This document shows, piece after piece, positions 11,195 through 35,988 of a stretch of DNA of 64,000 nucleotides (positions are counted from its first letter, which is position 1; each line of letters starts with the position of its first letter). Position numbers and translations under genes: made by a program. Origin of the DNA: Woeseiaceae bacterium (GTDB lineage Bacteria; Pseudomonadota; Gammaproteobacteria; Steroidobacterales; Woeseiaceae); assembly GCA_021773055.1 (NCBI GenBank), contig JAJFKV010000044.1:20151-84150 (forward strand), in the 5' to 3' direction. The notes below the pieces were generated by a model. That model was not told the origin of the DNA, made no database searches, and saw only the letters and a program-made list of their open reading frames with translations.

Positions 11195-11662
11195 ATGCAA
11201 AACGTTTCGCTCGACCATACCGACCGCAAGATTCTTGATTTGCTGCAGACCAATCCCGGCATCAATGCGACCGCGATTGGTGAGCGGATCGGGCTGTCGC
11301 AGTCTGCATGCTGGCGCCGCATTCAGCGTATGCGAGAGGAAGGCGTAATTCGCGATCAAGCCGTCATCCTGGATCGTGAGAAGGTCGGGTTGACGACGAT
11401 GGTATTTGCACACGTCAAGCTGACGTCACACGGCCGCAGTAATTTGTCTACATTTGCCGAAGACGTGAAACGCTATCCGGAAGTGATGGATTGCTACGTT
11501 GTGCTCGGCAATGTTGACTTCTTGCTGCGCATCGTCACTGAGGACATCAAGGCCTACGAACAGTTTTTCTTCGAAAAACTATCGCAGCTGCCGGGTATTC
11601 AAGAGGTTAATTCGAGCATTGTGCTTTCTGATATCAAGCACACAACGGCGCTCCCAATCTAG
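11195..11662 (+). CDS. bkdR: Lrp/AsnC-family transcriptional regulator, divergent from the ldh-bkd operon (BkdR-like)
   Basis: 155 aa with an N-terminal HTH (LDHTDRKILDLLQTNPGINATAIGERIGLSQSACWRRIQRMREEGVI) and a C-terminal AsnC/RAM domain. The divergent arrangement matches the Pseudomonas bkdR-bkd layout. Confidence 0.85.
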   Translation: MQNVSLDHTDRKILDLLQTNPGINATAIGERIGLSQSACWRRIQRMREEGVIRDQAVILDREKVGLTTMVFAHVKLTSHGRSNLSTFAEDVKRYPEVMDCYVVLGNVDFLLRIVTEDIKAYEQFFFEKLSQLPGIQEVNSSIVLSDIKHTTALPI

Positions 11663-11712: not shown

Positions 11713-13062
11713 TTACTCGATTGGCTCATCTTCAATTTCCAGCTCCGTATCAGGCTCGGGCTCAGGCTCCGAGAGGGTTGCGAGCATTGCGGCAAACTGG
11801 GCGGGGCGATAGCGCTCATCGTTATTTAGTGTGTCCGCAATCCGGTCCAGCTGATCTTCGAGCCGGGGGTCATCAATTTCGATAACCAGCATTTGCACCG
11901 CCATGAATGCCTGCTCGGCGCTGATGTAATCAATGTAGTTACCTTCCGCTCCGGTGCCGAGAATTTCGCGCAACAACCGCATTTCATGACCGCTTGGATT
12001 TCGAGGAGACAGCTGACCTTGCAAGCGGGCCAGGACGACGTCGAGTATTGCTGCGGCCTCCCGGATGGCGTCGATATTGTCGCTGCCTGCACGATGCAAC
12101 GCGACGAGGCCGGACTCCATCGCCTCCCCATCGGACGGGGACAGGGCGCGCGCCAATGCCATCGACATTACGAGCGTACCGTCGTGTACAAACGGCACAC
12201 CGGGTCCGGCACCGCCGTGCCGCGGTAGTGGTCGCCACTGCACAGTCTTCATTGAGCGGTGACAAGCGTGGCAGTCATAAAGCCCGAGCTCCGGAAACAT
12301 TCCTTCGCCGTCGAAAAGTGGTCCATCAATCAAGCTCAGGCGATGCCGGCTTTCGGCGAGTAGTCCGGCAGCCCAGCTGTAGCTGTGGCTTACCGAGCCT
12401 TTGCGCTCGCGATAATCTGCATCGATCCGATAGTGAGGTTGGCGACCAAAAGTACGCCATAACTCCGTAAATGTATCGAGTTCAAACGCGAGGCGGGGGT
12501 GTCCTGCCGCCATGATGCGATGCGTTGCAAACTTGTCCTTTGTACCGAGATGACAAGAGAGACAAAGGTCGCCACGCTTCGATACGGATTCGGTTGGATA
12601 CAGGCCGGCCTCGAGATTCGCCGCATGCGTGACGGTCGGTTGGTTGTAATGTGTCGCCAACCAGTTTTCCGCACCACCGTGGCAGGATTCGCAGCCAACA
12701 CCATCGGAAAGGTGAAATCGCTCACCGCGCTGCTGGAGCGGGACATTATCCGCGTGGCAGTCTAGGCATATTTTCGCCGTAATTGCCGATCCCAACCCGA
12801 GTCGTGCGGCGATACCCTTCGATCGGCTATTGCTGAGAACTTCGTAGGCCAGAGAGTGTGGGTCGTCCTGCGTCCAAGTGACGTACTCATTCTGCAAGAC
12901 GTTGGAACCCTCGCGCGGTACCGCTGAGCCATGGCATTGAGAAGCAGCGCAAGTAGCAACGCCCATGTGAACATAGCCATCGTTCTCGGGTAACTCGGCA
13001 GAGGTCACGCCAGCCAGCAAGATGCCAAGCGCAGCAAGCGACGTTCTATTCATCTTCGACAT
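11713..13062 (-). CDS. Secreted multihaem c-type cytochrome (4 CXXCH + 1 CX4CH) with an acidic C-terminal tail
   Basis: Signal peptide MSKMNRTSLAALGILLAGVTSA. Haem motifs are CAASQCH, CLDCH, CESCH, CLSCH and CHACH. The tail is EPEPEPDTELEIEDEPIE. The start is 13062 or 13053, overlapping the upstream stop by 17 or 8 nt. Confidence 0.85.
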   Translation of the reverse strand: MSKMNRTSLAALGILLAGVTSAELPENDGYVHMGVATCAASQCHGSAVPREGSNVLQNEYVTWTQDDPHSLAYEVLSNSRSKGIAARLGLGSAITAKICLDCHADNVPLQQRGERFHLSDGVGCESCHGGAENWLATHYNQPTVTHAANLEAGLYPTESVSKRGDLCLSCHLGTKDKFATHRIMAAGHPRLAFELDTFTELWRTFGRQPHYRIDADYRERKGSVSHSYSWAAGLLAESRHRLSLIDGPLFDGEGMFPELGLYDCHACHRSMKTVQWRPLPRHGGAGPGVPFVHDGTLVMSMALARALSPSDGEAMESGLVALHRAGSDNIDAIREAAAILDVVLARLQGQLSPRNPSGHEMRLLREILGTGAEGNYIDYISAEQAFMAVQMLVIEIDDPRLEDQLDRIADTLNNDERYRPAQFAAMLATLSEPEPEPDTELEIEDEPIE

Positions 13063-16000
13063 ACCAGGGATTCCCCTCTGCATCGAGATACAGTTTCTGC
13101 ATCTCTTCATGAGTAAGTGGACGCGAGCCCTTGCGGCCGAATACCGCGATCTGACCGCCTGTTTCGTCGACACCGCGATCGCGATCAAGCCCTTTCGAAA
13201 GCGACAACACCGGACTTTGCGTTGGATAACTTGCGATCAGTTCGGGTTTCGGCAACGGGCTGAAGCCGTAAAAGTTTGGTTGTGAGCTCGGCGACGTCAG
13301 TTGCACAATCTTCAGGCCGTCGAAGCCATCAGCGACATAGGCGTAAAGAGATGCGTTGGTTGAGCCAACAACGACATCCCGCGAATCGCGGATCCGCCCG
13401 TTCGCATTGAAAAACTCAATGAGCTTCGGTTCTTCAGGGTTCCAGACATCGATGACAGCCAGCCCTTGTGAGCGTGCAGCTACGTAGGCATAGGTTCGAG
13501 CAACATATATGCGTTCGGCATCGTCAATCGGAACATGTGCGCCACTCATCCGTGGAGCGTCCGGGTTCGTTACATCAACAACGCGCAGCCCCGAATCGTC
13601 TGTGACAAACAGATAGCGAAATTGCAGCGCTGACGCACGACCGTTATCGAGCGGTACAATGGCCGTGATATACGGAATCATCGGCCGGTTCACATTGACG
13701 ATGATGAGTCCCCGATCCGCGACGATGTACAAATAGTGGCCGCCGATCGTGATGTGACGCGCACCGGCCAGTACGCCACCGGGGTTCCACGTCAAAGCTC
13801 GCTCGATGAAATTGTTATTCAGATCACCGTCAGAGAAGGTCGTTACATCAACCAGGATCAGCCCTTCCGTGCTGTCGGTTACAAATGCGTAGTCATAGAT
13901 CGGATGAAACGCCTGTTCCTGATTATCGATCCGCATCAGATCACCAGTATTTCGTGGCGGATGAATAGGTTGATTGGTGGGCAGTGCTACGCAGGTGGCG
14001 TACTTTGAGTTAACGTCTGAGTCGTGCCCCATTTTGCTAAAGGGCAACTCGACGATGCGCTGACTGAAGCCCTTGTTCGCAATGTTCGCAATGTCATAGA
14101 CCTGCAAACCCTTTTCGCCTTCCGCCGAATACAGATACTCTCCGCGCACTTGCACGCAACGTGCCGGTCCACCGCTATGTGTTGCGGCGGTCTGCAGAAC
14201 GCTGCCATCGTCCAGATGCTGCTGGAAATTATCCGGGTAGGCGTAACGGTGCAAATAGCTGCCGATTACCGCTTGTGGTTCGTCCCATTCGGTAACTTGC
14301 GTGCCGAGAATGCCGTCTTCCAGACCGGCCCAGGCATTGAAGCCGACAAAATTGACGAAGTTGGTACCGAACAGCAACAGTTGAGCCATCCACGCATTGT
14401 TATCACCCGCGGCGCTCAGGTGGCAATTGCTGCAGGTCTTGGTTTCAGTTTTTCGCGTCGTGTGCGGAAAGTGCGGATTCATTGCCTGTGAGCTGAAGCC
14501 ACTGGCCGCAACCGGTGCCTGTTGAACGTAGATGTGTTCGCGGTTCGCATTGGTCGACGACAAGACCAGAGCTGAAGAAGAACGTACTGGTGCAATCTTG
14601 CTATCGTTCAGTGGTCCGCGCCGACCGAGCATGAACATTTGATCGCGTGCTACCTGCGGGTTGTAGGTGGCGAAGTTACGAGATTCACCGCCGTCATAAT
14701 GATGACTCTCGGTTTTCCAGTTAGCCTCGATAGGCAAATGGCAGCCGGCACAACTTGTTATCCACGATGTGTGGCAGGTGTAGCACTCAATCTCTTCGTT
14801 TTGATGAGCGAGGTCTTCCGTCGCTACGCCCAATCCCCAGTCCTGGCTTTGTACGTCATCGCTCATCAACTTGGCGCGTGCTGCTTTTTCGTTGTACTCG
14901 GCGTGCTCGGGATTGACGCTGTCCTTGACCAGGCTCAACGCCCACTCGACGTCGGGGTCCAGTATTGATCGCTGGATGAGTTTGTCGCCTTGCCACTCGA
15001 AGCGGCGCTTGCCATTCTCATTGCGATACAGACGCATGTCTGTGCCACCCGGTGGTGCAGCGGGGCCTGATGTTCTCAAGTCCGGATACGACTGCGCTGT
15101 ACCGTGGCAATCCTTGCATTCGACTTCGACAGCACTCGCCACTTCGCCGTAAATATGCCCGTTGCCGTGATTGTCTTGCGTGAAGTGACAATCCACGCAG
15201 TGCATGCCTTTATCAACATGGATAGATGACATGTGTACAGCTTTGTCAAACTTGTCCGGATCATCGTTGGCGACGATGTTGCCATCGGCATCCAGAAGGT
15301 TGCCTCGCAAGTCGCGTTTTTGAATGGCGCGAAAATTCCAGCCGTGGCCGTGGTAATCCGCGAACTGCGTATCGTTTAGTTCGGGATTGAGATCGGTCAC
15401 GTTGCGCAGGAAATCGATGTCCGCCCACTTGCCACGAATGACCGCTCCTTCAGGGTTTCGGTCCTGGACCTCTCGCTGCTCGGCAATGCTCAGATTTTGT
15501 TGTTCCTCTGGCCACATGAAGGGCGCGTCGGACTCGTAATCCCACATCGTGTAGCCAAGATAGGAATTCATAAACATGTTGGGCTGGTGCATGTGACAAA
15601 CCATGCACTGGCTCGTCGGTATGGCGCGCGAAAACTCGTGTCGCAATGGGTGGCCTGATTCGCCTTTGGGAATAGTTGGATCAAGTGATGTTGATTCACC
15701 GTCACGGCCGAACGCAGCATAAGGGCCCGAGTGCCTCTCGTCACGGTCATTCGCGTAGACGACGTGGCAACTCGCACAGCCCGAAGATCGATAGTCGCCC
15801 GGCTGATCATTGGTGCCCATGAACCAGGTGAACGGATCGTTCAGACGAGTCTTGTGAATATTGATCAATGGCACGGCTATACGGCCGCCGGTACCAGGAC
15901 CACGATTGGACTGTCGCGTATCGGGCTTGCCCGGCTCTTCGAGTCGCTGTATTTGCCCCAGCGTATTCGGCAAACCGGTTTCCGGAAACAGGTTGGTCAG

Positions 16001-16711
16001 GTTTCTGCCGCCGTCCTCAAACACACGGAACACATCGGCTGGCTTGACACTTTCCCAGGTAGGCAATGGAAACAAGCCGGCGATGACGCCGTGTTGTTTC
16101 GCCACTTCGGGGTCGAGGTCGGACCCCGTAATTTTGGCGGGTTCGCCGTCTGCCGTATAGCCTTCACCGAGTATGTAGTTCTTGAACGGCAGTATGCCGT
16201 TATTGTATGCGGCACCACCCCAGAGCATGACGCCAGTTGCCATCATGCTGCGAATATTCGCATCGATAATTTTCTGATGGCATGCGCCGCAGGCCGTTTC
16301 AGCCACCCGATAGTCGGATGGATTGACGAAGCGGATGAACTCGGAGCTTTCGTGGTTGAGGAGCGTGTACGAGCGTTCCGGGTTGGCGCTTGACGGGAAA
16401 TGCCAGGTCTCCGGATAAAGCGGACTAACGTGCGCGCGATCAAGCGCAGATTCGTCATCCTTCTCGATCGTCGAGTCGCCGCCGTGACAATCGGTGCAAC
16501 CGAGCACCACAGACGGACTGTCATGCATGCTGCTGGCGTCGGTGGACGTGTGACAGCTTACGCAGCCGAAGCTTTTGAGCGCGGCCATTTGCTGTGACTG
16601 TCCTTCAGGCGCGGGCGGGTAGACAGGATATTCAACGTGCTGCGGTGCCTCGCCCTCCGAGGCCATCAGCATGAGCGGCAGTAGCAACAATAACGATGTC
16701 AGTTTCTTCAT
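13046..16711 (-). CDS. 1221-aa secreted decahaem c-type cytochrome fused to a C-terminal LVIVD-repeat beta-propeller
   Basis: Signal peptide MKKLTSLLLLLPLMLMASEG. There are ten CXXCH motifs in the first ~770 aa (CVSCH, CTDCH, CGACH, CASCH, CMVCH, CVDCH, CKDCH, CYTCH, CAGCH, CSNCH). The C-terminal ~400 aa carries six LVIVD-like repeats (GLQVYDIAN, GLILVDVTT, GLIIVNVNR, GLRVVDVTN, GLAVIDVWN, GLKIVQLTS). Confidence 0.85.
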   Translation of the reverse strand: MKKLTSLLLLLPLMLMASEGEAPQHVEYPVYPPAPEGQSQQMAALKSFGCVSCHTSTDASSMHDSPSVVLGCTDCHGGDSTIEKDDESALDRAHVSPLYPETWHFPSSANPERSYTLLNHESSEFIRFVNPSDYRVAETACGACHQKIIDANIRSMMATGVMLWGGAAYNNGILPFKNYILGEGYTADGEPAKITGSDLDPEVAKQHGVIAGLFPLPTWESVKPADVFRVFEDGGRNLTNLFPETGLPNTLGQIQRLEEPGKPDTRQSNRGPGTGGRIAVPLINIHKTRLNDPFTWFMGTNDQPGDYRSSGCASCHVVYANDRDERHSGPYAAFGRDGESTSLDPTIPKGESGHPLRHEFSRAIPTSQCMVCHMHQPNMFMNSYLGYTMWDYESDAPFMWPEEQQNLSIAEQREVQDRNPEGAVIRGKWADIDFLRNVTDLNPELNDTQFADYHGHGWNFRAIQKRDLRGNLLDADGNIVANDDPDKFDKAVHMSSIHVDKGMHCVDCHFTQDNHGNGHIYGEVASAVEVECKDCHGTAQSYPDLRTSGPAAPPGGTDMRLYRNENGKRRFEWQGDKLIQRSILDPDVEWALSLVKDSVNPEHAEYNEKAARAKLMSDDVQSQDWGLGVATEDLAHQNEEIECYTCHTSWITSCAGCHLPIEANWKTESHHYDGGESRNFATYNPQVARDQMFMLGRRGPLNDSKIAPVRSSSALVLSSTNANREHIYVQQAPVAASGFSSQAMNPHFPHTTRKTETKTCSNCHLSAAGDNNAWMAQLLLFGTNFVNFVGFNAWAGLEDGILGTQVTEWDEPQAVIGSYLHRYAYPDNFQQHLDDGSVLQTAATHSGGPARCVQVRGEYLYSAEGEKGLQVYDIANIANKGFSQRIVELPFSKMGHDSDVNSKYATCVALPTNQPIHPPRNTGDLMRIDNQEQAFHPIYDYAFVTDSTEGLILVDVTTFSDGDLNNNFIERALTWNPGGVLAGARHITIGGHYLYIVADRGLIIVNVNRPMIPYITAIVPLDNGRASALQFRYLFVTDDSGLRVVDVTNPDAPRMSGAHVPIDDAERIYVARTYAYVAARSQGLAVIDVWNPEEPKLIEFFNANGRIRDSRDVVVGSTNASLYAYVADGFDGLKIVQLTSPSSQPNFYGFSPLPKPELIASYPTQSPVLSLSKGLDRDRGVDETGGQIAVFGRKGSRPLTHEEMQKLYLDAEGNPWYVEDE

Positions 16712-18501
16712 CAGTACGCCAGAATCAGGTTTGCGAGTACGGAGTAGGCCGTGTCCGAGCCGAAAAGTTGTTTATAGCCATCGGCCGGGACGAGCGCGGA
16801 ACCCGCTACACGCAGAATAACGTTCTGCGATATCAGCGGCCGATAGGTAATCGCGAGCGACAGGTCCTGACCAATACTCTTGTCAATGTTGCCCTGATTG
16901 CGGGCGACTTCGAGTACTGCCGTATCGTCGAACCACAGCTGGTTTGCATTTATGGACGCGCGAATCTTCGGTGTGATTTCCATATCGACACCCACACCCG
17001 CCAGCAACAGCCCCGGGTTTGTGAAATTCGATTGCCCGTGCGCCTTGCTTGAACGCAACGAATTGAGCAGGCCGTTCTGTGACGAGAGCGTGACCCGGCC
17101 GCCACCGAGCAACGGCACCGCCTGACGAATCCAGAAACTAGTGTCGGCACCGGCGATCAGCGGATTCTCAAAAATCGCGTCGAAGCCCGTGGACTTGTCA
17201 TCATAGGGATCGTCATCTCCACTGCCATAGATGAGCGTTGCCCGGAGACGTAACCAGTCGAAATCTCGCGAGACCTCGACGGCTGCAAATGCGGCGCTGA
17301 TATCGCTCTCAAGGCCGGTAAATGTTGCGGGCTTTTCTGTGCCAAACGCGTAGTAAGCCGAAGCTGTCAGGTTCCAGCGACCGATGTGACCGTCGCCGTT
17401 ATAACCGACATATGTGACCTCATACTCGCGATTTCTCTGCACGCCGATAGCGGCAGGTCGAGCGAGAAATCCATTTGCGTCTACGAAAGGATCATCAATT
17501 TCGGAATTACGGTTGTGAACCAGCGCGATCTGTGAGGTGAAACCCAGTATCGGAAAGTCCTGTCGATAGAGATTAAAAAGTAATACGTCGTCCTCACGGA
17601 GGTCGGCGGAAATGTCGTTCAGTCCGCTGTTCGAGTCTTTCTCAAGACGGCGGAATACACCGATGTTGTATTGCCAGCGATTGTTGTTCCGCGTGCCGAA
17701 CAAGCGGATGCCCACCGGGCTGTCTTGAAACAGGAAACCCCGAAAGTCGGCCGTTATCGGCTGTATTCCGATCCTCAGACTATCGAAGTCAAAGCGATCG
17801 GAGACGTTGCGCAAATGCTTGTCGAGAAACAAGCCCTGGATGCCGACAAAGTTGTCACTTCGAGTTGTGCCCGCGGTTGGGTCGGCTCGCAAGATACCGG
17901 CTTCGCCGACTTCGACGCGTGTGAAATTAAGAACTGGCAGAATACGCAGCTCATAGTCAGGCGGCCTGAATATGGTCTCGCCTTTATAGAGCACCGCCTC
18001 AAGGAGGACGTTTTGAGTAAATGCTGTCTGATCGACGTCGCCAGGAACGTCGAGCTCACCCGGATCGGGTGATGTTGCGATCCCGACGGGTGTCGGCAGA
18101 CGGCGACCCTCAAAAGTCGAGTCCGAAATCAGATTGAAGGCGACAAACCAGTCGTTACCGAATGCGGGGCGATCACCTTTTAGAACGTTGTTGCCATGAT
18201 ACGGATCCCAAAGGCGCTCGGGATAACCGACAGCATTAACGATGCGCCAGCGATCCGGTATGGCTGCGAAATAGGGCAGGTCGCCCCAAACAGCTGGTGA
18301 AAGTCCGGGCTCATCACAGCGATGTGCTTCACGTGGCGGGTCACCAGGCCGGCGACGTAAGCGATCGAAATACTCGACGCAATCAGCACGTATGCCGGGA
18401 GCCTCCGCTTGCACAGCGTTTGACACGGACATCGCATAACACGCGACCAGTGTGGCAAGGCAAAGATGTCTATTTATTTTCACAGACATTCTGCTCGTCA
18501 C
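16711..18501 (-). CDS. Putative outer-membrane beta-barrel protein (family not recognised)
   Basis: About 590 aa with signal peptide (MSVKINRHLCLATLVACYAMSVSNAVQA-EAP). The sequence has alternating amphipathic, Gly/aromatic-rich segments throughout and a C-terminal ...SVLANLILAY ending in an aromatic residue. Its stop overlaps the next gene's ATG by 1 nt (TGATG). The start is 18501 or 18489. Confidence 0.6.
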   Translation of the reverse strand: MTSRMSVKINRHLCLATLVACYAMSVSNAVQAEAPGIRADCVEYFDRLRRRPGDPPREAHRCDEPGLSPAVWGDLPYFAAIPDRWRIVNAVGYPERLWDPYHGNNVLKGDRPAFGNDWFVAFNLISDSTFEGRRLPTPVGIATSPDPGELDVPGDVDQTAFTQNVLLEAVLYKGETIFRPPDYELRILPVLNFTRVEVGEAGILRADPTAGTTRSDNFVGIQGLFLDKHLRNVSDRFDFDSLRIGIQPITADFRGFLFQDSPVGIRLFGTRNNNRWQYNIGVFRRLEKDSNSGLNDISADLREDDVLLFNLYRQDFPILGFTSQIALVHNRNSEIDDPFVDANGFLARPAAIGVQRNREYEVTYVGYNGDGHIGRWNLTASAYYAFGTEKPATFTGLESDISAAFAAVEVSRDFDWLRLRATLIYGSGDDDPYDDKSTGFDAIFENPLIAGADTSFWIRQAVPLLGGGRVTLSSQNGLLNSLRSSKAHGQSNFTNPGLLLAGVGVDMEITPKIRASINANQLWFDDTAVLEVARNQGNIDKSIGQDLSLAITYRPLISQNVILRVAGSALVPADGYKQLFGSDTAYSVLANLILAY

Positions 18502-22044: not shown

Positions 22045-22048
22045 ATCG

Positions 22049-22918
22049 TCACCAGTACAGGAACACGGTTAGGATATGCGCAATCAGGGCCATAAGCAGA
22101 GCGGCCGTCAACGGGACATGGGCATAAAGCCAGATCTCAATGCCAGCCTGTAATTTCAGGTCTGCGCCGACCTGTCGCAAGAGTTTGCGCTTGTTGCGAA
22201 GCAGGGCGGACAACTCCGCGATCGTCGCGGCAGAATTCGCATCAGCACGCGATTGTTGCTCGGCGAGCCAGTCCATCGCAGCTTCCTGACCCGGGTTTAG
22301 AATGGTTTCCGCCTGATTCGGTATCTGAATACGGGACCGGTCTTCGTTACGCAATCGCTGCCACAAGGTACTGCCCAGCTCAGTACGCTGAATGCCACTG
22401 GTAACGAAGTCCTGATACTCATTTGGCAGATTTTCAGCAACCCGGCGGCTGCGCCGGTCAATGTCATCCAGCTGGTCGAGCAGCTCTGAACGACTCGAGC
22501 CATCACGATTTTCACTAAGCCGTTCCGGATACTTCAAATAGATGAAAACACCGTACATGCCGCTGACGATGACCAGTGTCATGAGCGCGAAAGCCAGCGT
22601 GTGAATATTCCATCCGACCTGGAACCCGGCATGCAGAAGAACGATGACAAACAACGCGATGCCGAAATAGACGTGCGCCGACAGCCAGCCCTGCAAGGTT
22701 CCCGCGGTCGAGCTGTAGCGTCGCTTTCGCACGCCAAACCACGTTAACCAGACAATCATTAACGCTCCGAATGTTCCCAGCGTGTAGCCAAGTACTGTGC
22801 CACCGTTGGGAGGCTCCTGTGGGTCATGAATCCAGTAGGCAAGCAGACAAACAATAGTCAGTGCCGTCGCCGCCCAAAGATAGCGGTACCTCCTGAAGAC
22901 GAGTATCGATTCGTGCAT
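22049..22918 (-). CDS. Integral membrane protein (4 TM + ~130-aa soluble insert + 1 TM) with two H-x13-H helices; putative di-haem b-type electron carrier
   Basis: TM3 is SAHVYFGIALFVIVLLHAGF and TM5 is YAHVPLTAALLMALIAHILTV, each with two His separated by exactly 13 residues. No other family motif was recognised. Confidence 0.55.
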   Translation of the reverse strand: MHESILVFRRYRYLWAATALTIVCLLAYWIHDPQEPPNGGTVLGYTLGTFGALMIVWLTWFGVRKRRYSSTAGTLQGWLSAHVYFGIALFVIVLLHAGFQVGWNIHTLAFALMTLVIVSGMYGVFIYLKYPERLSENRDGSSRSELLDQLDDIDRRSRRVAENLPNEYQDFVTSGIQRTELGSTLWQRLRNEDRSRIQIPNQAETILNPGQEAAMDWLAEQQSRADANSAATIAELSALLRNKRKLLRQVGADLKLQAGIEIWLYAHVPLTAALLMALIAHILTVFLYW

Positions 22919-22919
22919 C

Positions 22920-25301
22920 TCAGCTCGCCTTCTTGGTTAGATTGACGAACTCGGCAGGGCTCATTCGCAATGCCGCGCCGGTAGGGCACGCTCGTACGCA
23001 GGCCGGCCCGCCAGAAAGGTCTTTGCACATGTCGCATTTGACGGCTTTCTTGATGGCCGTCTTGCTGGCATCGGGACTACCTATGGCCTGACGTTCACCG
23101 GGCGCGGCGCCTTTGCCCGTCAGCAGCCAGTTCAACAGGCTCGGTGCCGCTTCTTTTTCGCTCGCCATTTGGATAACGCCATACGGGCAGTTGCGCTCGC
23201 AATTACCACAACCGATGCAACTGTCTTCAATATAAACTTCGCCATTGGGGGCGCGACGGATGGCGTCGGGCGGGCAGTCCTTCATGCAATGCGGATCTTC
23301 GCAGTGACGACACGAGGTCGGTACGTGAACCTGTGCATAGGACGGCCCGGCAGCGCGGTCGAGTCGTGATGTGCCGCCGTGGGTCTCCGCACAGGCTTTC
23401 TCGCAATTGTCGCAACCGACACACAAGGACTCGTCAATCAGCAGCACATCAGTTGCTTCACCCAGACCTTGTTGCATCAGGAATGAAATCAGGTCACCCG
23501 CATCCGGAGCGGCCTCCATGCGCAGGTTCTCACTGATGCGCTCTTTCACTTTTGTCTGGATGCGTTCACGCAGCCCGGTGTTGCGCAGCAGCATGGTCTG
23601 AAAAACGTCGGCGCGCAGGAAGACCGACTCTGTTGCCACAGTCGCCGTGACGGTCGCCGATCGACGCGTTTCTCCAACCAGGCCCATCTCGCCGACGTAG
23701 TTGCCCGCTGCCACGTAAGTCGTGACGATGTCGCGGCCACCGATATGGCGCGACACTGAAACCGAACCATTGCGTATCAGGTGCAATCCGTCTGCCTCAT
23801 CACCTTCTTTGAAGAGAACGTCATTAGCTCGAAATGAAATAAGCTCTGCCGTTGCAGCGACGGCTTCGAGCTCGCCCAGGGGTGAGTCCGGTACGAGATC
23901 AGCCTGCAAAGTGCGCACGATAAAGTGCTGATCGATGACCTGCCGCACCGGTTCGTAGCTGTTCATCAGCTTGATCATTTCGCGGCGCGGTGTTTCCAGT
24001 AACACGCAGTCCGCTGATGCACGCACAGTCGCTGAACGCCTGCGACCCGACAGTAAACTCATTTCGCCGAAGAACTGACCCTGACCCAGGCCGATAAACT
24101 GGCCATCATCCGTTTCGACCTCCACTTCGCCTTCGACGATGGATATGAACGAGTTGGTGTAATCATTCTTGTGGAAAATAACGTCGGCGCGCTTCGGCGT
24201 GAGCAATTCACTCGCGAGAACAAGTTCACGCAACACGAGACCATTAACGTTTTCAAACAGCGATACGTTGCCGCGAATCAACGCCAGTGTGTCATCGACA
24301 CCCTTGCCATACGGCAAGTGCCGGAACTTATCTTCGAGTATGCCGTGATCGGCCGGCAAAATATCGTTGCCCTTAATGAACTCAACGACTTCGTAGCCCT
24401 GGTTCATCGCCTGTTTGATAAGGGGGTAGCCCCCCAGTGCACCGATGACATACAGACCGGGCACATTGGATTCATAATGACCTGAAAGCTCGGGCAAGGT
24501 TGTTGGCTCATCACTCGGAAAAGTAATGCCAGTGGATTCCACGAAGCGACGCGGTGGGATGGCACCAACACGAGCGATCACGCGGTCGCACTCAACACGA
24601 GTCTCACCGGTCTCAGTGTTCAGGTTGATGGCTTTCGAGACTTCGATCGATGCGACACCTGTGTTGAAAAAACAGCTGATCGAACCATCTTCAATGGCGC
24701 GGGTAATCAGCGTCAGGTTGCCTTCTTTCGCGCGCGCAAACTCATCCCGGCGATTAACGATGACAACGGCGTTATTGCGCGCCAGCGCCACAGCATTTTC
24801 GATAGCCGCATCGCCAGCACCAACGATGGCGATAGTTTCATTCTTGTATTCATCGGGGTCGTCCAGCGTGTATTGCACACTTGAGTCACTCTCCCCGTCG
24901 ACGCCCATCTTGCGTGGATTACCCTGCAACCCTATGGAAAGAACGATTGTTTCCGCCTGTAAGGTTTCACCGTCGGCAAGTTGCAGTTCGAATTCAGGTC
25001 TGGAGCCCGTAATGGCGGTTACTTCCGCGTTGTAACGAATATTGACCTCAAGATCGTCGAGTCCGGATTGCCAGCTGCTGAGAATCGCCTCGCGCGTGCC
25101 TGCCGCAAATCCAAGATCACTTCGCAGTGGCACGACAGACGGTTCGGCCATGACGTGCTTGCCTTTCTGGTAGCGCTGGATCGTATTGGCGGGCGCGGCG
25201 CTGCTTTCCAGCAGCAGGTATTTCAGCCCGAGCACTTGCGCGCGTGCAGCCGCACTTAATCCCGCCGGCCCCGCACCGACGATGACGAGCTCAAGACTCA
25301 C
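22920..25301 (-). CDS. Cytoplasmic FAD/NAD(P)-dependent oxidoreductase (thioredoxin-reductase-like) fused to two cyclic-nucleotide-binding domains and a 4x[4Fe-4S]-motif ferredoxin domain
   Basis: Dinucleotide folds LVIVGAGPAGLSAA and IAIVGAGDAAIENA. cNMP phosphate-binding cassettes FGEMSLLSGRRRSATVRA and VGEMGLVGETRRSATVTA. Cys clusters CVGCDNCEKAC, CRHCEDPHCMKDCP, CIGCGNCERNCP and CDMCKDLSGGPACVRACP. There is no signal peptide and the start is GTG. Confidence 0.85.
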   Translation of the reverse strand: MSLELVIVGAGPAGLSAAARAQVLGLKYLLLESSAAPANTIQRYQKGKHVMAEPSVVPLRSDLGFAAGTREAILSSWQSGLDDLEVNIRYNAEVTAITGSRPEFELQLADGETLQAETIVLSIGLQGNPRKMGVDGESDSSVQYTLDDPDEYKNETIAIVGAGDAAIENAVALARNNAVVIVNRRDEFARAKEGNLTLITRAIEDGSISCFFNTGVASIEVSKAINLNTETGETRVECDRVIARVGAIPPRRFVESTGITFPSDEPTTLPELSGHYESNVPGLYVIGALGGYPLIKQAMNQGYEVVEFIKGNDILPADHGILEDKFRHLPYGKGVDDTLALIRGNVSLFENVNGLVLRELVLASELLTPKRADVIFHKNDYTNSFISIVEGEVEVETDDGQFIGLGQGQFFGEMSLLSGRRRSATVRASADCVLLETPRREMIKLMNSYEPVRQVIDQHFIVRTLQADLVPDSPLGELEAVAATAELISFRANDVLFKEGDEADGLHLIRNGSVSVSRHIGGRDIVTTYVAAGNYVGEMGLVGETRRSATVTATVATESVFLRADVFQTMLLRNTGLRERIQTKVKERISENLRMEAAPDAGDLISFLMQQGLGEATDVLLIDESLCVGCDNCEKACAETHGGTSRLDRAAGPSYAQVHVPTSCRHCEDPHCMKDCPPDAIRRAPNGEVYIEDSCIGCGNCERNCPYGVIQMASEKEAAPSLLNWLLTGKGAAPGERQAIGSPDASKTAIKKAVKCDMCKDLSGGPACVRACPTGAALRMSPAEFVNLTKKAS

Positions 25302-26932
25302 GGATTGCCGAATGCGGCTGCGCCGGAAACTGTTGTTCCGCTTTGCGGGTCCTGCAGGCTGTAGGTCATACCAACGCCCGCAGGAATCGCAGGATCCGAA
25401 GTGTCGCCGGGCTCACTGAAGAAACCGGAGAAAGTACCACTGCCACCCGTGGCCCCACCCACCACGACCGCGTTGTAGAAGCCTTCGAACAAGTGGGCCG
25501 GCAAGCCGATCTCCATTCCCATATCGCCGTTGCCTGAAGCGCTCCACGTTACACCGCCGATATCGATGACCAGTGTGCTGCTCACAGCAAGGTTGGTGAA
25601 GTCGGCCAGGAACGTTGCGCTGCCGAGTACGCCAGTATTACCCCGGTTGTCTGTCGGTGATGTTGCACCGATTAGTGAGTAGGAGGCTGTGCCTGTGATC
25701 GGCATGACCGGTGGCGCCTCTGCCGCACTGCTAATCCAGTGCAGGCTTTGACTGCCGAGGTCTTGGCTGACGTCGCTGCCATCACTAAGCAGCGTGCCGC
25801 TGGCAACCCCACCCGACCAACGCCCCCAACGCAACACGGTCATGGTATCGAAGCCCGTATCGGTATTGGTTGAGGTGCCGATGTTCCATGCCGCTGGCTC
25901 GCTGGCTACTCTGCCGGGGTATGGGCCGATAAAGCCTTCGAGATTGTTGCCGCCATCAAGTTGCAGCGACGCAGGATCATTAACTTGCATACCGCTGAAG
26001 GCTGTTCCAATAGCACCGAGCGGACCGGTTGAGTAACTAATCGTACGACCGGCCGTTGCTCGCGGTGATTCACCCGGCGTGATGTCGATCGGCGTGCCGT
26101 CCGGATCGATACCGATCACGGGTTGTCGCGGCGTTTCCGGATTAGCGCTGTCCTTCGGATCGGTTTCCTGAGAGTCCGGAGCACCCGAAGCCGGGTTGCG
26201 ACGAAGACCAAGTTTGTCGTCAAAGCCAGCCCTTACCGGTGTGCCATTGGCATCGAAGCGCAAGTCGTTGTCATCGATCAATACGGAAGGCGGTGCGTCG
26301 AGCCTTTCGGGAACGCGCGACGCCATCGGAATGAAGGCGTATTCGCCAGCGCGAACCACTATCTCACCACCCGGGGCGCGAAATACTATTACTCCTGCTG
26401 TTACTCCGATGTATAAACCGTCTTCAATGGGCTCGCCCGGATTCACATTAGGCGCCCAGTCGCAGTCACCACTACAAAGTAATATCGCGAAATTGGTGCC
26501 GCGAATACCGAGCGTCCCAACTGGTGTGCGGACCTCGTAGTTCGCACGGTTTTCCTCTCCAATGGCACCCGTGATGGTGCGTAAGCCGCCCTTCACCAGC
26601 GAGATGACGCTCTTGTCCTGTGATGTTTCAACAATCGTTGGCGACGCAGCCGCGTAAACATATTCGTCGATGCGTATTTCACTGTTTGGCCGAACAGCGA
26701 TTTTCGCACCATCGATCATCAGCAGTTGCGCACGAGATGCATCACCGGTGCTAATCGTATCGGTAGCCAGGACACCGTCGCCTTTCGCCAGTGCGACCAC
26801 GGCGTCACGCTGTGCGGTGACAGAACCTTTGCTGAATAACACCGAGCCGGCATCGTCAGCGCTCGCCTCAGCAACGAAAAAAAGTGCAACTACAAGCGAT
26901 GCCTGTGTGCATACTTTGAAAGAATTAATCAT
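25298..26932 (-). CDS. Secreted FecR-domain protein with a C-terminal TbpB/Slam-cargo-like 8-stranded barrel domain
   Basis: Signal peptide MINSFKVCTQASLVVALFFVAEASA with no lipobox. FecR-like region KGSVTAQRDAVVALAKGDGVLATDTISTGDASRAQLLMIDGAKIAVRPNSEIRIDEY. The C-terminus (MPITGTASYSLIGAT...GSATFLADFTNLAVSSTLVI...GSGTFSGFFSEPG...VGMTYSL...VSGAAAFGN) follows the TbpB-handle/HpuA/hemophilin barrel pattern. ATG 26932 forms ATGA with the upstream stop; GTG 26944 is an alternative start. Confidence 0.65.
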   Translation of the reverse strand: MINSFKVCTQASLVVALFFVAEASADDAGSVLFSKGSVTAQRDAVVALAKGDGVLATDTISTGDASRAQLLMIDGAKIAVRPNSEIRIDEYVYAAASPTIVETSQDKSVISLVKGGLRTITGAIGEENRANYEVRTPVGTLGIRGTNFAILLCSGDCDWAPNVNPGEPIEDGLYIGVTAGVIVFRAPGGEIVVRAGEYAFIPMASRVPERLDAPPSVLIDDNDLRFDANGTPVRAGFDDKLGLRRNPASGAPDSQETDPKDSANPETPRQPVIGIDPDGTPIDITPGESPRATAGRTISYSTGPLGAIGTAFSGMQVNDPASLQLDGGNNLEGFIGPYPGRVASEPAAWNIGTSTNTDTGFDTMTVLRWGRWSGGVASGTLLSDGSDVSQDLGSQSLHWISSAAEAPPVMPITGTASYSLIGATSPTDNRGNTGVLGSATFLADFTNLAVSSTLVIDIGGVTWSASGNGDMGMEIGLPAHLFEGFYNAVVVGGATGGSGTFSGFFSEPGDTSDPAIPAGVGMTYSLQDPQSGTTVSGAAAFGNP

Positions 26933-28278
26933 TGCGGCACCCACTGTAGCTGGAGACCGACTTCCGTGCGGTCATAGTCATAAAGTGCAATATTTGAATC
27001 GTTGTCTATGTAGCGAATTCTCGGCGTTAATGACAAACCGTCAGACCAGACATCGCTGAAGGTTACCTGCAATAGTGTTGAGACTTGTGTGTCCTCTCGT
27101 GATGTTCCGAAAAAGACACCGTCGTAGTCACTGGTCAGGCTACCTGCTGAGGCGAATAACTGTCCTTTGTTGCCAACCGCCATGTGCAGCGTGAGACGCC
27201 CGCCAATTTTCGAATTACCGTACGGAGAGCCGCTGTTACGTTCAGAGTCGTTGCCACCGATCACCTCAAAGCCGAGCTTGCCGGGAGATTCGAATTGATA
27301 GGTCAGGCCGCCGCTGTAAAGAATACGATCAACATCGAGCGTATCGATCAGGTCATCGTGTCGAATGGCACCACCGCGAAGGCTGAGCGTGATATCCCAG
27401 TTAGAAGCGATTCGACTTCCAAGTAATGCATCCAGTCCGAGATAGCTCTGATTCGGGTCTCCATCGCGTGTGGCCCAGTAACCATCGGCACCGGCCCGCC
27501 CAAAAAATGGGCCGCGCTGCCAGGTCACCCCGGTATTGCCGCTCAGGACACCAGAATCGACGAAACTGGCGTCCGGGTTGTGCCGGTAGCTGGCGCGGCC
27601 ACCGGTATACCAGCCAAATTGCGTGCTTTTCGGGTTATTCCAGTTAAAGCTGGCGCCGGCCTCGACGAACGATGTTTCAGTCTGCAGATTGTCCGGGCTG
27701 AGGATGAAGCCCATGAACTGCTGGTCGTCGGTCGAGCCGTTGGCGTTGTCATCGTAACCACCGGCCACATCGAACGAAAAGCGGAGACTACTCTTGGGAG
27801 GTGATGGTGTTGCGTCGATGGATGCAATGTAATCACTAATAATCGTGCGTACAGGCGCTGATGGCCCCTCATCCAGCAAACGTATGAACAACGGACGTGC
27901 CAGTGCTGCATTGCCGCTGTCGAAGTATGCGCGGGCGAGTTCCATTCGGGCCCCTGAAAATTCAGGGGAAACGGCCAGCGACCGGCGCAGGCTGAATATC
28001 GCATCACTGTGGTGTCCGGAATCCAGCGCGGCAACACCGAGGAGGTAGTCGAAATACGGATTACCGGCCAGTTCTACTTCACGCGTACTCAACAGGGTAA
28101 ATGCCGCGCCACTTTGGCCTGTGGCCAGCAACGACTCCGCATCTTGAAGAAACTGCCGTTGTTCAGCGCTGGCAGCGATTCGAAATGTGTCCTGAGCGAT
28201 GACCTCGGTTGTGAATACACAAAACCACACGGTGAGCGCCAGGATAGATACTTTCTTGATATTCGGTACGGGTAGCAT
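26929..28278 (-). CDS. TPR + C-terminal beta-barrel outer-membrane protein, Slam/DUF560 (type 11 secretion)-like
   Basis: Signal peptide MLPVPNIKKVSILALTVWFCVFTTEVIAQ. TPR-like N-terminal ~170 aa (GNPYFDYLLGVAALDSGHHSDAIFSLRRSLAVSPEFSGARMELARAYFDSGN) followed by a ~280-aa barrel-like region ending ...DSNIALYDYDRTEVGLQLQWVPQ. The size and architecture match Slam proteins. Confidence 0.6.
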   Translation of the reverse strand: MLPVPNIKKVSILALTVWFCVFTTEVIAQDTFRIAASAEQRQFLQDAESLLATGQSGAAFTLLSTREVELAGNPYFDYLLGVAALDSGHHSDAIFSLRRSLAVSPEFSGARMELARAYFDSGNAALARPLFIRLLDEGPSAPVRTIISDYIASIDATPSPPKSSLRFSFDVAGGYDDNANGSTDDQQFMGFILSPDNLQTETSFVEAGASFNWNNPKSTQFGWYTGGRASYRHNPDASFVDSGVLSGNTGVTWQRGPFFGRAGADGYWATRDGDPNQSYLGLDALLGSRIASNWDITLSLRGGAIRHDDLIDTLDVDRILYSGGLTYQFESPGKLGFEVIGGNDSERNSGSPYGNSKIGGRLTLHMAVGNKGQLFASAGSLTSDYDGVFFGTSREDTQVSTLLQVTFSDVWSDGLSLTPRIRYIDNDSNIALYDYDRTEVGLQLQWVPQ

Positions 28279-28325
28279 TTTTTTTATTTTCCCGCGATCC
28301 AAATCTTGAGCAGTGCTGTGCGGTA

Positions 28326-30467
28326 TTACTTGCTCAGGTGGTCGAAAACCCCATCCCAATCCGCCGGCGGTGGCTCTTGTTTGAACCGCTCTATCCGATC
28401 AAGGTACGCATTATATAGAAGCTCGCCCTTCTGTTCTGTCAATTTTTCGAACAACTGGCGTGAGATTTCCCAATCACAGCGCCGATACCCTGCCAGCGCT
28501 TTTTCATAATCTGCCAGCGTCGAAAGTTCTTTTTCGTCGAGCGTCCTTGTCTCACCTATTGGTTCGAATATTGCGACCGGTTTCGTCTTTCCTTTAACGC
28601 GAACGAGATCTAGCTCTCTAAACGTAAATTCAGGGATATCTGCCACGGTGCCTTCATTGACGATGATGTCGACACCGTATTGTTTGGTGAGCCCCTCAAG
28701 CCGCGAACCAAGGTTCACCGTATCGCCCATAACCGTATAGGCAATACGAAACTCTGAACCCATGTTGCCGACATTCATGTCGCCACTTGCGATGCCAACG
28801 CCAACACGAATGGGTGGCCAGCCTTTTGCTGCGAATGCCTCATCCAGTGATTCGACAGCTTGCAACATGCCGAACGCGGCGAGCAGGGCGTGCCTTGCGT
28901 GGTTTTCGTCCTGCAGCGGGGCGCCCCAAAACGCCATTACACAATCACCCATATACTTATCGATGGTGCCGCGGTGTTCTTGTATGACGCGAGTAAACGG
29001 CGTTAGAAACTCGTTCATCATTTGCGTCAGCTCACGTGCATCCAGCCCTTCCGAGATCGTAGTAAACCCTCGAACGTCCGAGAACAGTACCGACATTACC
29101 CGTGTTTCGCCTTCCAGAGACACTTCGGCGCCGCTGGCGTCGATTTCTTCTACAACGCCGGGTGGAATGTACTGACCAAAGATTTGTGACAAGTGCCGTT
29201 TGTTTCTTTGCTCGACAAAAAAACCATACGTGATTTGCAGTAACCCGGCGACCAGCGTGAATCCAATGATCGATGCGATTGGAATGACGAGATTGAATGA
29301 TGTCCAAAGCCAAAGGTTAGTTGTCATCGTCAGCGCAAGTATCGCCGCGACCATCAATAGTGATGACTGCGGTGAAAGTTTTGGCAACAATAGCGCAACG
29401 AGTGCGCCGATCAGGAATAACAAAGTGAACTCAAGGCCATTCGACCAGGCAGGTTGCCGGCGGATAGTTCCGTCGAGCAAACCCGCGACGAGATTCGCGT
29501 GCACCTCGACACCTATGTACCGCTGACCAACAGGGGTCGAGCGCAAGTCGAGCAGACCGGCTGCGCTTGCCCCGACCAGTACGATCTTGTCAGCCAGCCA
29601 TTCACGGGGTGCCGTCTTGTTGACGATGTCGCGAGCTGGAATGAAGCGGAAGCTTTCCTGCGGGCCGCGGAAGGGAATGAAAACAGCGGCTTGTTCGTTG
29701 ACGGGTATTTCTTTATCACCGATGCGGAACGACTCAAGATCGATTCCGCGTCGTTCGCTGCCGGCAAATTTGAAGCCAACAGGTGGCGCACCCATAGCCG
29801 AATGCGTTAGCGCCAGCGCCAGCGCCGGATAAAGGTCACCCCGGTAGCGTTGCACTAGTGGCGTGCGCCGGAATACCCCGTCGGAGTCAATTAATGGCGA
29901 GTCGAAAAAACCGCCACCAGATGCATTTTCCTGCAGCGCTTGCAGGCTGCCGGCATAGCCGGCCGCTGTGACAAAGGGCACGGAGATATCGGTGAGATCT
30001 GCGGCAGGAATGAATGCTGTGGGTAGTACGCCTGTGAATTCAGGTTCGTTTTGGCTGAGTGAGTCTTTGAATACGAAGCCTGTGACAATATTGCGGGCGA
30101 TAAACGACTCCGCAAAGGTTTCATTGCCACCGCCACGACCTGCTTCGGCGAACAATACATCAAAGCCCAACACATTGACGCCATAGTCATCAAACAGAAT
30201 ATCGAGAATGCCGGCGAGCGTTTCCCGTTCCCAGGGCCATTGCCCCAATTGCACCTGGCTGGCCTCGTCGATATCGACGATGACAATGCGATCATCGATA
30301 CCGCCCGGCATCGTAGTACGAACGCGTACGTCGTAAAGGTAGTTCTCCATGCGGTCGATCGCCTCGAACCGCGGCTTGCCGGCAACGTGCATAGAAAAAA
30401 TGATGAGCACGACCGTACTTATCAGGAGGCGTATCAGCAGTCGGGCCGTGCGAGTGGCGAGAGGCAT
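28326..30467 (-). CDS. CHASE2 sensor domain - TM region - class III adenylate/guanylate cyclase
   Basis: N-terminal TM plus a periplasmic CHASE2-like region (IVIVDIDEASQVQLGQWPWERETLAGILD), three further TM helices, then the cyclase core VLFSDVRGFTTISE, KYMGDCVMAFWGAP and YTVMGDTVNLGSRLE. Confidence 0.88.
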   Translation of the reverse strand: MPLATRTARLLIRLLISTVVLIIFSMHVAGKPRFEAIDRMENYLYDVRVRTTMPGGIDDRIVIVDIDEASQVQLGQWPWERETLAGILDILFDDYGVNVLGFDVLFAEAGRGGGNETFAESFIARNIVTGFVFKDSLSQNEPEFTGVLPTAFIPAADLTDISVPFVTAAGYAGSLQALQENASGGGFFDSPLIDSDGVFRRTPLVQRYRGDLYPALALALTHSAMGAPPVGFKFAGSERRGIDLESFRIGDKEIPVNEQAAVFIPFRGPQESFRFIPARDIVNKTAPREWLADKIVLVGASAAGLLDLRSTPVGQRYIGVEVHANLVAGLLDGTIRRQPAWSNGLEFTLLFLIGALVALLLPKLSPQSSLLMVAAILALTMTTNLWLWTSFNLVIPIASIIGFTLVAGLLQITYGFFVEQRNKRHLSQIFGQYIPPGVVEEIDASGAEVSLEGETRVMSVLFSDVRGFTTISEGLDARELTQMMNEFLTPFTRVIQEHRGTIDKYMGDCVMAFWGAPLQDENHARHALLAAFGMLQAVESLDEAFAAKGWPPIRVGVGIASGDMNVGNMGSEFRIAYTVMGDTVNLGSRLEGLTKQYGVDIIVNEGTVADIPEFTFRELDLVRVKGKTKPVAIFEPIGETRTLDEKELSTLADYEKALAGYRRCDWEISRQLFEKLTEQKGELLYNAYLDRIERFKQEPPPADWDGVFDHLSK

Positions 30468-31398: not shown

Positions 31399-31425
31399 TC
31401 ATTTTTCAATCAAGGGGATATTGCC

Positions 31426-35959: not shown

Positions 35960-35988
35960 TCTTTAAAAACAGCATAAGGGGAACATCA

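Follow-up and report, generated by a model that had tools for sequence, protein, structure and literature searches.

What purpose is served by the row of ten genes at positions 11713-30467 of a contig from a Woeseiaceae bacterium (GenBank JAJFKV010000044.1; the 64,000 nucleotides from 20,151 to 84,150, referred to here as the window), which joins several multihaem cytochromes to a cyclic-nucleotide sensor? The genes, numbered G1 to G10 in the direction of transcription, encode a predicted multihaem trans-envelope redox system built from several uncharacterised protein families. Its best reading, to which we give about an even chance, is the export of electrons from NAD(P)H to the periplasm or outer membrane, probably gated by cyclic AMP (cAMP).

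The gene layout was computed with the best-supported start codons. Ten minus-strand open reading frames (ORFs) follow in a row, and neighbours overlap or lie at most 47 nt apart. G2 and G3 overlap by ATGA (26929-26932), G3/G4 and G6/G7 by GTGA (25298-25301 and 20440-20443), and G8 and G9 share nucleotide 16711 in TGATG. The intergenic gaps are 1 nt at 22919, 4 nt at 22045-22048 and 47 nt at 28279-28325. This is exactly the overlap-coupled arrangement reported in an earlier note on this DNA, with two more overlaps than it listed, one of 20 nt between G7 and G8 and one of 8-17 nt between G9 and G10. The public gene calls give the same protein lengths for G1 and for the six genes G4-G9. The total of 24 CXXCH and one CX4CH haem motifs given in the note was obtained again on recounting (ten in G6, ten in G9 and 4+1 in G10), and the motif counts are kept in 38/39 G6, 22/24 G9 and 24/24 G10 homologues. 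Moreover, every domain that it named was recovered by Pfam and NCBIfam searches.

Conservation of the gene order was studied in a one-genome-per-species scan with a G6 profile, which gave 45 loci in which the genes were mapped by tblastn. Since G1-G10 stand in identical order in all of the approximately 25 full-length Woeseiaceae loci, the arrangement is not due to chance. A Halieaceae locus (L044), a Cellvibrionales locus (L045) and an unclassified gammaproteobacterial locus (L039) contain only G4-G10, in the same order and with no G1-G3. A metagenome scan with the G5 family profile added about 30 long contigs of 59-66% GC, one of which is labelled as activated sludge. About 20 metagenome loci carry G4 through G9 or G10, some contigs (L076, L078 and L080) carry the bare G4-G5-G6 trio, and in others (L104 and L105) the trio is directly followed by a G10-like pentahaem cytochrome, with no G7-G9. 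In L100 and L111, G10 is divergent and located upstream. Wherever the flanking sequence suffices, G4, G5 and G6 are neighbours. As partial gene sets occur in different lineages and contigs, the locus is modular, with an inner-membrane trio (G4-G6), an outer-membrane and periplasmic trio (G7-G9), an accessory cytochrome (G10) and a sensing cassette (G1-G3) that was seen ahead of the seven-gene redox core G4-G10 in Woeseiaceae only. The idea of one self-contained ten-gene system therefore holds for the gene order in Woeseiaceae and fails for indivisibility, because G4-G10 are found without G1-G3 and cassettes like G1-G3 are known separately. The neighbourhood check that had been proposed for the locus gave a corresponding result: G4-G10 co-occur in several orders and in metagenomes, and G1-G3 do not accompany them outside Woeseiaceae. 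One genome that carries G4-G8 (L026, BFAU01000204.1) is labelled 'Bacterium MnTg04', a name that may point to a manganese-related enrichment.

Electrons would enter the system at G4 (22920-25301, minus strand as all ten genes), a predicted cytoplasmic flavo-iron-sulfur (FeS) protein composed of a thioredoxin reductase (TrxR)-fold FAD/NAD(P)H domain, two cyclic-nucleotide-binding (cNMP) domains and a ferredoxin module with four [4Fe-4S] clusters, in line with the cytoplasmic NAD(P)H-type entry point proposed before. Pfam matches were Pyr_redox_3 (1.8e-33), cNMP_binding (3.5e-39, two stretches) and Fer4 families, and no signal peptide was found. The flavin domain has a TrxR/YpdA-like fold, in which GxGxxG and GxGxxA motifs are conserved. 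No CxxC occurs in residues 1-320, where Cys210 is the sole conserved Cys, and therefore a function as thioredoxin or bacillithiol disulfide reductase was ruled out; the score against TIGR01292 was also low (75.5, cut-off 343). The N-terminal domain presumably belongs with the thioredoxin-reductase-fold ferredoxin:NADP+ reductases (FNR), and the sequence of G4 fits such an FNR-like enzyme. In the ferredoxin module, 16 invariant Cys in four motifs specify four [4Fe-4S] clusters of HydN/DmsB type.

The two cNMP domains of G4 have intact phosphate-binding cassettes (GEMSL...RRSAT and GEMGL...RRSAT), with both the Gly-Glu and the Arg-[ST]-Ala elements. Since they are positioned between the flavin and FeS modules, a cyclic nucleotide could gate electron entry through them. 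To our knowledge, there is no precedent for cyclic-nucleotide domains embedded in a respiratory entry enzyme. The domains are kept even in loci with no co-encoded cyclase. The second cassette (residues 545-551, window positions ~23650-23670) reads RRSAT in lineages with the cyclase cassette and in most others, and RRDT, RKET or RRET in L044, L045 and L102, the three lineages closest to Halieaceae, which suggests a different ligand in these three.

The next protein, G5 (22049-22918), is predicted to cross the inner membrane with five transmembrane (TM) helices, and its helical loop of about 130 residues is placed in the cytoplasm by the positive-inside rule. H-x13-H occurs twice, as H82/H96 in TM3 and H267/H281 in TM5, on helices that run parallel; four conserved His on two TM helices with a spacing of about 13 residues are what a di-haem cytochrome b would have. 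These four residues and H106 are invariant in an orthologue alignment (to 41% identity) as well as in a 24-member family alignment (to 31%), which has 15 invariant columns in all. The family is large, with 2,299 representative clusters. Against a di-haem cytochrome b profile of Pfam, the window protein scored 17.5 bits, under the cut-off of 30.1, and the 24 family members gave weak matches to Ni_hydr_CYTB (12/24, best 2.4e-5), DUF4405 (5/24) and Ferric_reduct (1/24), which we take to be families of one Pfam clan of di-haem transmembrane cytochromes b. Searches of PDB sequences with G5 found no relative, either with the single sequence or with the profile, the latter returning coiled-coil noise only. 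On this pattern of residues, G5 is interpreted as a remote di-haem cytochrome b, predicted to be loaded with two haems.

G4 and G5 are also found as a single chain. P0464, a representative protein of 1,110 aa, consists of a complete G4-like flavo-cNMP-FeS protein fused to C-terminal G5-like helices, and this Rosetta-stone evidence indicates that G4 and G5 form one complex. It is the one representative of the fusion seen, and a gene-calling artefact is still possible.

The fusion also bears on whether NAD(P)H or the quinone pool feeds the chain. G5 with G6 could be a quinol:cytochrome c oxidoreductase comparable to Geobacter CbcL or to CymA, in which case G4 would be an auxiliary input, a cAMP-responsive regulator or an enzyme that reduces quinone through G5. 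Characterised members of Ni_hydr_CYTB and DUF4405, the families that G5 relatives weakly match, are quinone-reactive di-haem b proteins (FdnI, HyaC and CybB). CbcL, an inner-membrane protein of a known extracellular electron transfer (EET) pathway that contains a di-haem b and a multihaem c part, is listed among the quinol oxidoreductases (PMC11492766), and a quinone link is favoured for a similar cytochrome of Ferrigenium straubiae (bioRxiv 10.64898/2026.01.22.701106), discussed below. However, G4 always stands ahead of G5 and is fused to it in P0464, its four-cluster ferredoxin module is of the kind that docks on membrane anchors, and no quinone-site motif was identified in the G5 sequence. 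A quinol-fed conduit is considered rather unlikely.

The third member of the inner-membrane trio, G6 (20440-22044), is predicted to have an FHA domain in the cytoplasm and, after KRK and a single TM helix, a decahaem cytochrome c in the periplasm; the first of the ten CXXCH motifs lies 20 residues beyond the helix. Pfam recovered FHA (1.2e-8, 35.7 bits, cut-off 20.7), Cytochrome_C7, Cytochrom_c3_2 and Paired_CXXCH_1, and also Yop-YscD_cpl. G6 is the least conserved protein across orders (30-38% identity). In its FHA domain, G31, R32, H49 and N72 are invariant and the canonical Ser position is occupied by Arg46. Since this Ser is replaced, the domain may serve as a scaffold, like YscD-type FHA domains. 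In the Halieaceae locus, a PP2C-type Ser/Thr phosphatase gene (L044:20607-21626) overlaps the end of the G10 homologue, which would fit phospho-dependent control via the FHA domain.

The inner-membrane trio was compared with four known arrangements. With NADPH oxidase (NOX), ferric-reductase-domain and MsrQ-type exporters, it shares the path from NAD(P)H through flavin and two bis-His b haems to a non-cytoplasmic acceptor, as well as H-x13-H on two parallel helices, and Ferric_reduct is the family matched by the single G5 relative mentioned above. However, G5 has five TM helices instead of six, FeS clusters lie between flavin and haem, and electrons would be passed to a multihaem cytochrome and not to O2, Fe(III) or MsrP. 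The Tmc and Hmc complexes of sulfate reducers have the same three layers, with a cytoplasmic FeS protein (as G4), a di-haem b protein (as G5) and a periplasmic multihaem c protein (as G6), and weak NCBIfam matches to TmcA and HmcA/HmcB were obtained. The differences are that the place of an HdrD-like CCG protein is taken by G4, an FNR-like flavoprotein with cNMP domains, that G5 belongs to a 5-TM family of its own, that G6 is membrane-anchored with an FHA domain, and that the expected flow is outward. CbcL, CymA and ImcH resemble the trio as an inner-membrane di-haem b and multihaem c assembly feeding a periplasmic chain; here the b and c parts are separate proteins, with the cytoplasmic NAD(P)H/FeS partner G4, sometimes fused.

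The fourth arrangement is a gene trio of Ferrigenium straubiae, described as novel and of unknown function, which encodes an FHA-nonahaem cytochrome together with a [4Fe-4S] protein and a 5-TM protein 'without redox motifs' (bioRxiv 10.64898/2026.01.22.701106, section 6.3.2). Compared by description only, it has the three-gene architecture and predicted topology of G4-G5-G6. It has nine haems instead of ten, its neighbours are nirK and an SHP-like gene and not G7-G10, and the preprint mentions neither flavin nor cNMP domains. This preprint was the only prior notice found in the literature, and it covers the inner-membrane trio alone. The description of the locus as of an unrecognised type was thus nearly right, with the reservation that the trio had already been flagged as novel in Ferrigenium.

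Beyond G6, the most conserved part of the system is encoded by G7-G9, with cross-order identities of 47-64% for G7, 50-60% for G8 and 59-68% for G9, the highest of all. At 90% identity, >7,800 homologue clusters were found for G9, the named ones being Woeseiaceae metagenome-assembled genomes, and >7,700 for G8, none of them named and none with a Pfam domain. G7 (18470-20443) has two HbpS/GlcG-like domains (HbpS-like 8.2e-20, two stretches) and a lipobox, LITAC, with Gly at +2, and is predicted to be an outer-membrane lipoprotein. Its matches among PDB sequences were the EfgA/GlcG family and a putative extracellular haem-binding protein. It is the sole lipoprotein of the set and carries no CXXCH.

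G8 (16711-18489) has no Pfam match. Its AlphaFold2 (AF2) model, from a 35-sequence alignment, has a predicted local distance difference test (pLDDT) of 56 and a predicted template modelling score of 0.54, and contains 18 long antiparallel strands, a number to be taken as approximate. Among PDB structures, Foldseek matched it best to AlgE, an alginate exporter of 18 strands (E 5e-14), and to OprD/Occ channels. Among 17 G8 family members, three matched Alginate_exp weakly, and MtrB_PioB was matched by none, not even with E<=10 allowed. The protein ends in an invariant Tyr, and it also has a conserved N-terminal extension of about 90 aa with two Cys and a highly conserved acidic insert of 70 aa (DDDPYDD...). 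With the model, the Foldseek matches and the terminal Tyr in agreement, the product that the earlier note had placed at 16711-18501 is indeed modelled as an outer-membrane barrel, of the 18-strand AlgE/OprD type and not of the MtrB type. The about 18 strands of this low-confidence model are fewer than the 26 of a barrel that encloses a decahaem cytochrome.

G9 (13046-16711) is a decahaem cytochrome of about 780 aa with a C-terminal LVIVD beta-propeller. It has a type I signal peptide and no lipobox, its ten CXXCH are canonical, and its invariant His are ample for bis-His ligation. The fusion to LVIVD was recovered (7.8e-24), and the six repeats that had been reported could not be confirmed: two repeats pass on their own, and the AF2 model has about 7-8 blades. 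This model was built from a shallow alignment (50 sequences, all >=75% identity); its propeller has a pLDDT of about 90, and its cytochrome domain, with a pLDDT <50, was unusable. Foldseek with the propeller returned generic propellers only, and PDB sequence searches with G8 and G9, using single sequences and profiles, gave no relatives. Against NCBIfam ExtM (NF040943), G9 showed a weak partial match of 73.8 bits over two short stretches, the cut-off being 800. The set is completed by G10 (11713-13062, alternative start 13053), a signal-peptide pentahaem cytochrome matching Cytochrome_C554 (9.7e-9), with a non-haem helical C-terminal half.

In a second explanation, no protein path would take electrons through the outer membrane. 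G8 would admit an oxidant in soluble or colloidal form, for which a metal chelate, Mn(III), a chalcogen oxyanion and a humic or quinone-type shuttle are candidates, and G9, with G10 and G7, would reduce this oxidant in the periplasm. It is favoured by the Foldseek matches of G8, which are substrate channels, and by its weak Alginate_exp and absent MtrB_PioB matches; by the acidic insert and conserved lumen-type polar residues of the barrel; by the position of G9, G8 and G7 as the best conserved proteins; by the missing lipid anchor of G9; and by its distant relationship to ExtM of the Geobacter ext cluster associated with selenite and tellurite (PMC5877670). On the other side, the ten G9 haems are all canonical with enough invariant His for bis-His ligation, so that no haem stands out as an open catalytic site; Pfam annotates LVIVD propellers as modules typical of the cell surface; and the G8 model is of low confidence. 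Since G9 could lie either at the surface or in the periplasm, a periplasmic reductase with a substrate channel is kept as an explanation of low probability.

The outer part was also compared with the porin-cytochrome conduits, MtrCAB of Shewanella and Pcc/Ext of Geobacter (including extHIJKLMNOPQS). As in these, multihaem c cytochromes are co-encoded with an outer-membrane barrel and a lipoprotein, and the predicted locations step through the envelope. A barrel and two secreted multihaem cytochromes are present, and the only lipoprotein, G7, is of the GlcG/HbpS type and not a cytochrome. In addition, G8 has about 18 strands and is AlgE-like, not MtrB/PioB-like, G9 carries a beta-propeller, and entry is via an NAD(P)H flavoprotein and not CymA or Cbc complexes. 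The likeness to ExtM is partial: ExtM is a 12-haem, 68-kDa protein (PMC5877670), whereas G9 has ten haems and a propeller and scores below the ExtM cut-off. Membership in MtrCAB was rejected on the barrel type and the missing MtrB_PioB match. The Uet cluster of Tenderiales was rejected too, since its LVIVD protein is separate and not a cytochrome, and the other uet genes (undecahaem, c7-type trihaems, NHL and cupredoxin) do not match. The component set corresponds to no characterised EET system, as the earlier note had maintained.

In Woeseiaceae, the redox core is preceded by the sensing cassette. G1 (28326-30467) is predicted to be an inner-membrane CHASE2 sensor with a class III nucleotide cyclase domain, and both CHASE2 (1.3e-51, 176.1 bits) and Guanylate_cyc (1.8e-20, 73.8 bits) score over their cut-offs. 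At the substrate-specifying positions, as known for class III cyclases from textbooks, Lys of DKYMGD and Thr of YTVMGD were read by eye from the sequence, and from this pair the cyclase is probably adenylate-type. G1 is present in all full-length Woeseiaceae loci and absent from the Halieaceae and Cellvibrionales loci. G2 (26929-28278) is predicted to be a Slam-like outer-membrane protein, with an N-terminal TPR region and a DUF560-type barrel. Its own scores fall short of the cut-offs (SlipAM 8e-4, 19.4 bits, cut-off 22; TPR_Slam 3.5e-3, 18.2 bits, cut-off 35.2), and among 14 orthologues SlipAM was matched by 11 (best 6.4e-6) and TPR_Slam by 13. G3 (25298-26932) is a secreted FecR-domain protein (FecR 9.1e-11) with a variable Pro/Asp-rich linker and a putative C-terminal beta-barrel domain resembling TbpB, as in Slam substrates. 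It has a signal peptide with no lipobox and hence is not a lipoprotein. The C-terminus scored 17.3 bits against NCBIfam slam_lipo (cut-off 80), which was weakly matched by 7/14 orthologues (best 1e-3), and 12/14 orthologues matched Lsa33. A TbpB-barrel-like C-terminal pattern is conserved in the alignment (...GSATFxADFTN..V.STL.I...G.FSGFFS...VSGAAAFGNP).

Related cassettes have been reported: clusters of a CHASE2 cyclase with FecR-domain and TPR proteins in Campylobacterota (PMC9239204), the CHASE2 cyclase CyaD1 beside a FecR protein (SMc02177) in S. meliloti, dependent on the outer-membrane barrel NsrA (PMC5498481, PMC13001267), and, in Burkholderia (BiofilmReg), a LysM-FecR protein accompanying a CHASE2 kinase (PMC5192318). 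For this reason, G1-G3 are regarded as an envelope sensor of a known kind. They share the domain trio and the placement in the envelope, and differ in that G2 is Slam-like and the FecR protein G3 bears a TbpB-like barrel. The novelty lies in the translational coupling (GTGA) of the sensor cassette to a redox operon whose first product bears two cNMP receptor domains, and the earlier pairing of these domains with a co-encoded class III cyclase is in keeping with the intact cassettes and the probable adenylate-type Lys/Thr pair. One unrelated metagenome lineage (L114, GC 0.60) has a CHASE2 and Guanylate_cyc gene at 527-2707, 30% identical to G1 and two genes upstream of a G4-G9 module, with no G2 or G3 homologues. 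This cyclase, the cNMP domains retained in G4 and the altered cassettes support the link between cyclase and G4 without proving it. A different second-messenger system stands beside the same redox core in L104 (13086-15809) and L105 (14205-16931), where a CHASE4-PAS-GGDEF-EAL gene comes next after the trio and the G10-like gene.

The components can be arranged in a mechanism for electron export from NAD(P)H, with predicted locations that step over the whole envelope as had been claimed. G4 would oxidise NAD(P)H at its FNR-like FAD domain and pass the electrons via the four [4Fe-4S] clusters to G5, whose two bis-His b haems, first the cytoplasmic-side and then the periplasmic-side one, would carry them through the inner membrane, bypassing the quinone pool. 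The membrane-anchored decahaem protein G6 would receive them into the periplasm, and the soluble pentahaem protein G10 and the decahaem-propeller protein G9 would follow as candidate partners. G9 would act with the lipoprotein G7 and the 18-strand barrel G8 on a terminal acceptor at or beyond the outer membrane. In Woeseiaceae, an envelope or surface signal could turn the pathway on through cAMP, by means of the G1 cyclase, the Slam-like translocon G2 and its probable surface-exposed substrate G3, and the cytoplasmic FHA domain of G6 could be a second control point, either phospho-dependent or scaffolding.

Several points weigh against this mechanism. Every component is a prediction from sequence and models. 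Proteins of the di-haem b families to which G5 shows a resemblance usually have quinones as ligands, so that the bypass of the quinone pool is an inference. In G6, the FHA domain is missing the canonical Ser for phosphate binding. Electrons may or may not reach the cell surface, the barrel being AlgE/OprD-like with no match to MtrB_PioB: an 18-strand fold of this kind, modelled at low confidence, would leave little room for a multihaem domain inside it. G9 has no lipid anchor, and its conservation of about 65% across orders is what one would expect of a periplasmic enzyme rather than of a cytochrome at the surface. As the core occurs elsewhere without G1-G3, and with the second cassette altered in cyclase-less lineages, cAMP gating by G1 may be lineage-specific. 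Finally, the assignment to a single operon was made from gene spacing and synteny, not from transcripts.

The opposite direction of flow, which the earlier note had left open, fares badly. In electron uptake, the chain would run inward, oxidising Fe(II), sulfur species or a cathode-like donor outside the cell and reducing NAD(P)+ via G4. In principle, multihaem chains can work in both directions, the Fe(II) oxidiser Ferrigenium has a related FHA-cytochrome trio (bioRxiv 10.64898/2026.01.22.701106), and some Woeseiaceae are facultative lithoautotrophs (PMC12175321). However, inward transfer through the two b haems opposes the membrane potential. The redox potential of NAD(P)+, about -320 mV, is much lower than those of Fe(II) or S donors, which makes NAD(P)+ an energetically implausible end point, and, on bioenergetic grounds, a subunit coupling the proton-motive force would be expected and none is present. 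The module is also found in soil and sludge contigs of heterotroph-like character. Given the membrane potential, the redox span and the missing coupling subunit, reverse flow is very unlikely. Equally improbable is a redox-sensing device, in which the cytochromes would report the periplasmic or extracellular redox state to the cytoplasm via the FHA and cNMP domains: signalling parts are many (the CHASE2 cyclase, FecR, FHA and two cNMP domains, with a PP2C adjoining the module in L044 and a CHASE4-GGDEF-EAL protein in L104 and L105), but 25 haems, four FeS clusters and a flavin would be excessive for a sensor, and no output domain (DNA-binding or kinase) is conserved with the core.

The borders of the unit are clear. 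On its 5' side lies a divergent TonB-dependent receptor, and between this and G1 a small plus-strand ORF (30697-31197, 166 aa) with a signal-peptide-like N-terminus and no Pfam match. The 3' side has a plus-strand Lrp/AsnC gene (11195-11662) and a branched-chain keto-acid dehydrogenase operon (6514-9991), together with a leucine dehydrogenase (LeuDH)-like gene (10004-11149); these stand 3' of the unit in Woeseiaceae. Amino-acid dehydrogenases of the Glu/Leu/Phe/Val type generate NAD(P)H, and genes for them recur beside the redox module, in differing arrangements, in L002, L017, L023, L031, L032, L040, L080, L044 and L114. In L080, a LeuDH-like gene is downstream of the bare trio, and genes of the glutamate dehydrogenase type, 67% identical to each other, are directly upstream of G4 in L044 (5210-6628) and L114 (2638-4113). 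This recurrence could be fortuitous, or a hint that the system is connected with the breakdown of amino acids. Elsewhere the window contains ordinary chromosomal genes, including those for PolA, an RND pump and sulfotransferases. Two tandem plus-strand genes (40459-42096 and 42104-43666) each combine TPR repeats with a sulfotransferase domain, and TonB-dependent receptors (31396-34545 and 35950-39000) flank the pair. An Rfam scan found no RNA element anywhere in the 64-kb window, and a promoter and terminator scan gave counts at or below those of shuffled sequence, being uninformative on operon structure.

A more far-reaching interpretation is proposed tentatively. G4-G5-G6 may represent a new respiratory enzyme class, a second-messenger-gated, quinone-bypassing NAD(P)H:multihaem-cytochrome transmembrane oxidoreductase ('NOX with a haem wire'), which with G7-G8-G9 would constitute an unrecognised EET route in Woeseiaceae and many soil and freshwater bacteria, switched by cAMP in Woeseiaceae through a surface-exposed, Slam-delivered sensor. 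If this is true, it would be the first case in which a cyclic nucleotide directly controls the point where electrons enter respiration. The new biochemistry would comprise cNMP domains within an electron-transfer protein, a new di-haem b family and an FHA domain joined to a cytochrome, and it would supply a function for the enigmatic FHA-cytochrome trio of iron oxidisers. Woeseiaceae are among the most abundant bacteria of marine sediments. For metal reduction, published analyses credit them only with mtrCAB detected by FeGenie (PMC12175321). The cluster described here differs from mtrCAB and is a far better conserved multihaem system. If it exports electrons, it would be a candidate for a large overlooked sink in the redox cycling of sediment, soil and sludge.

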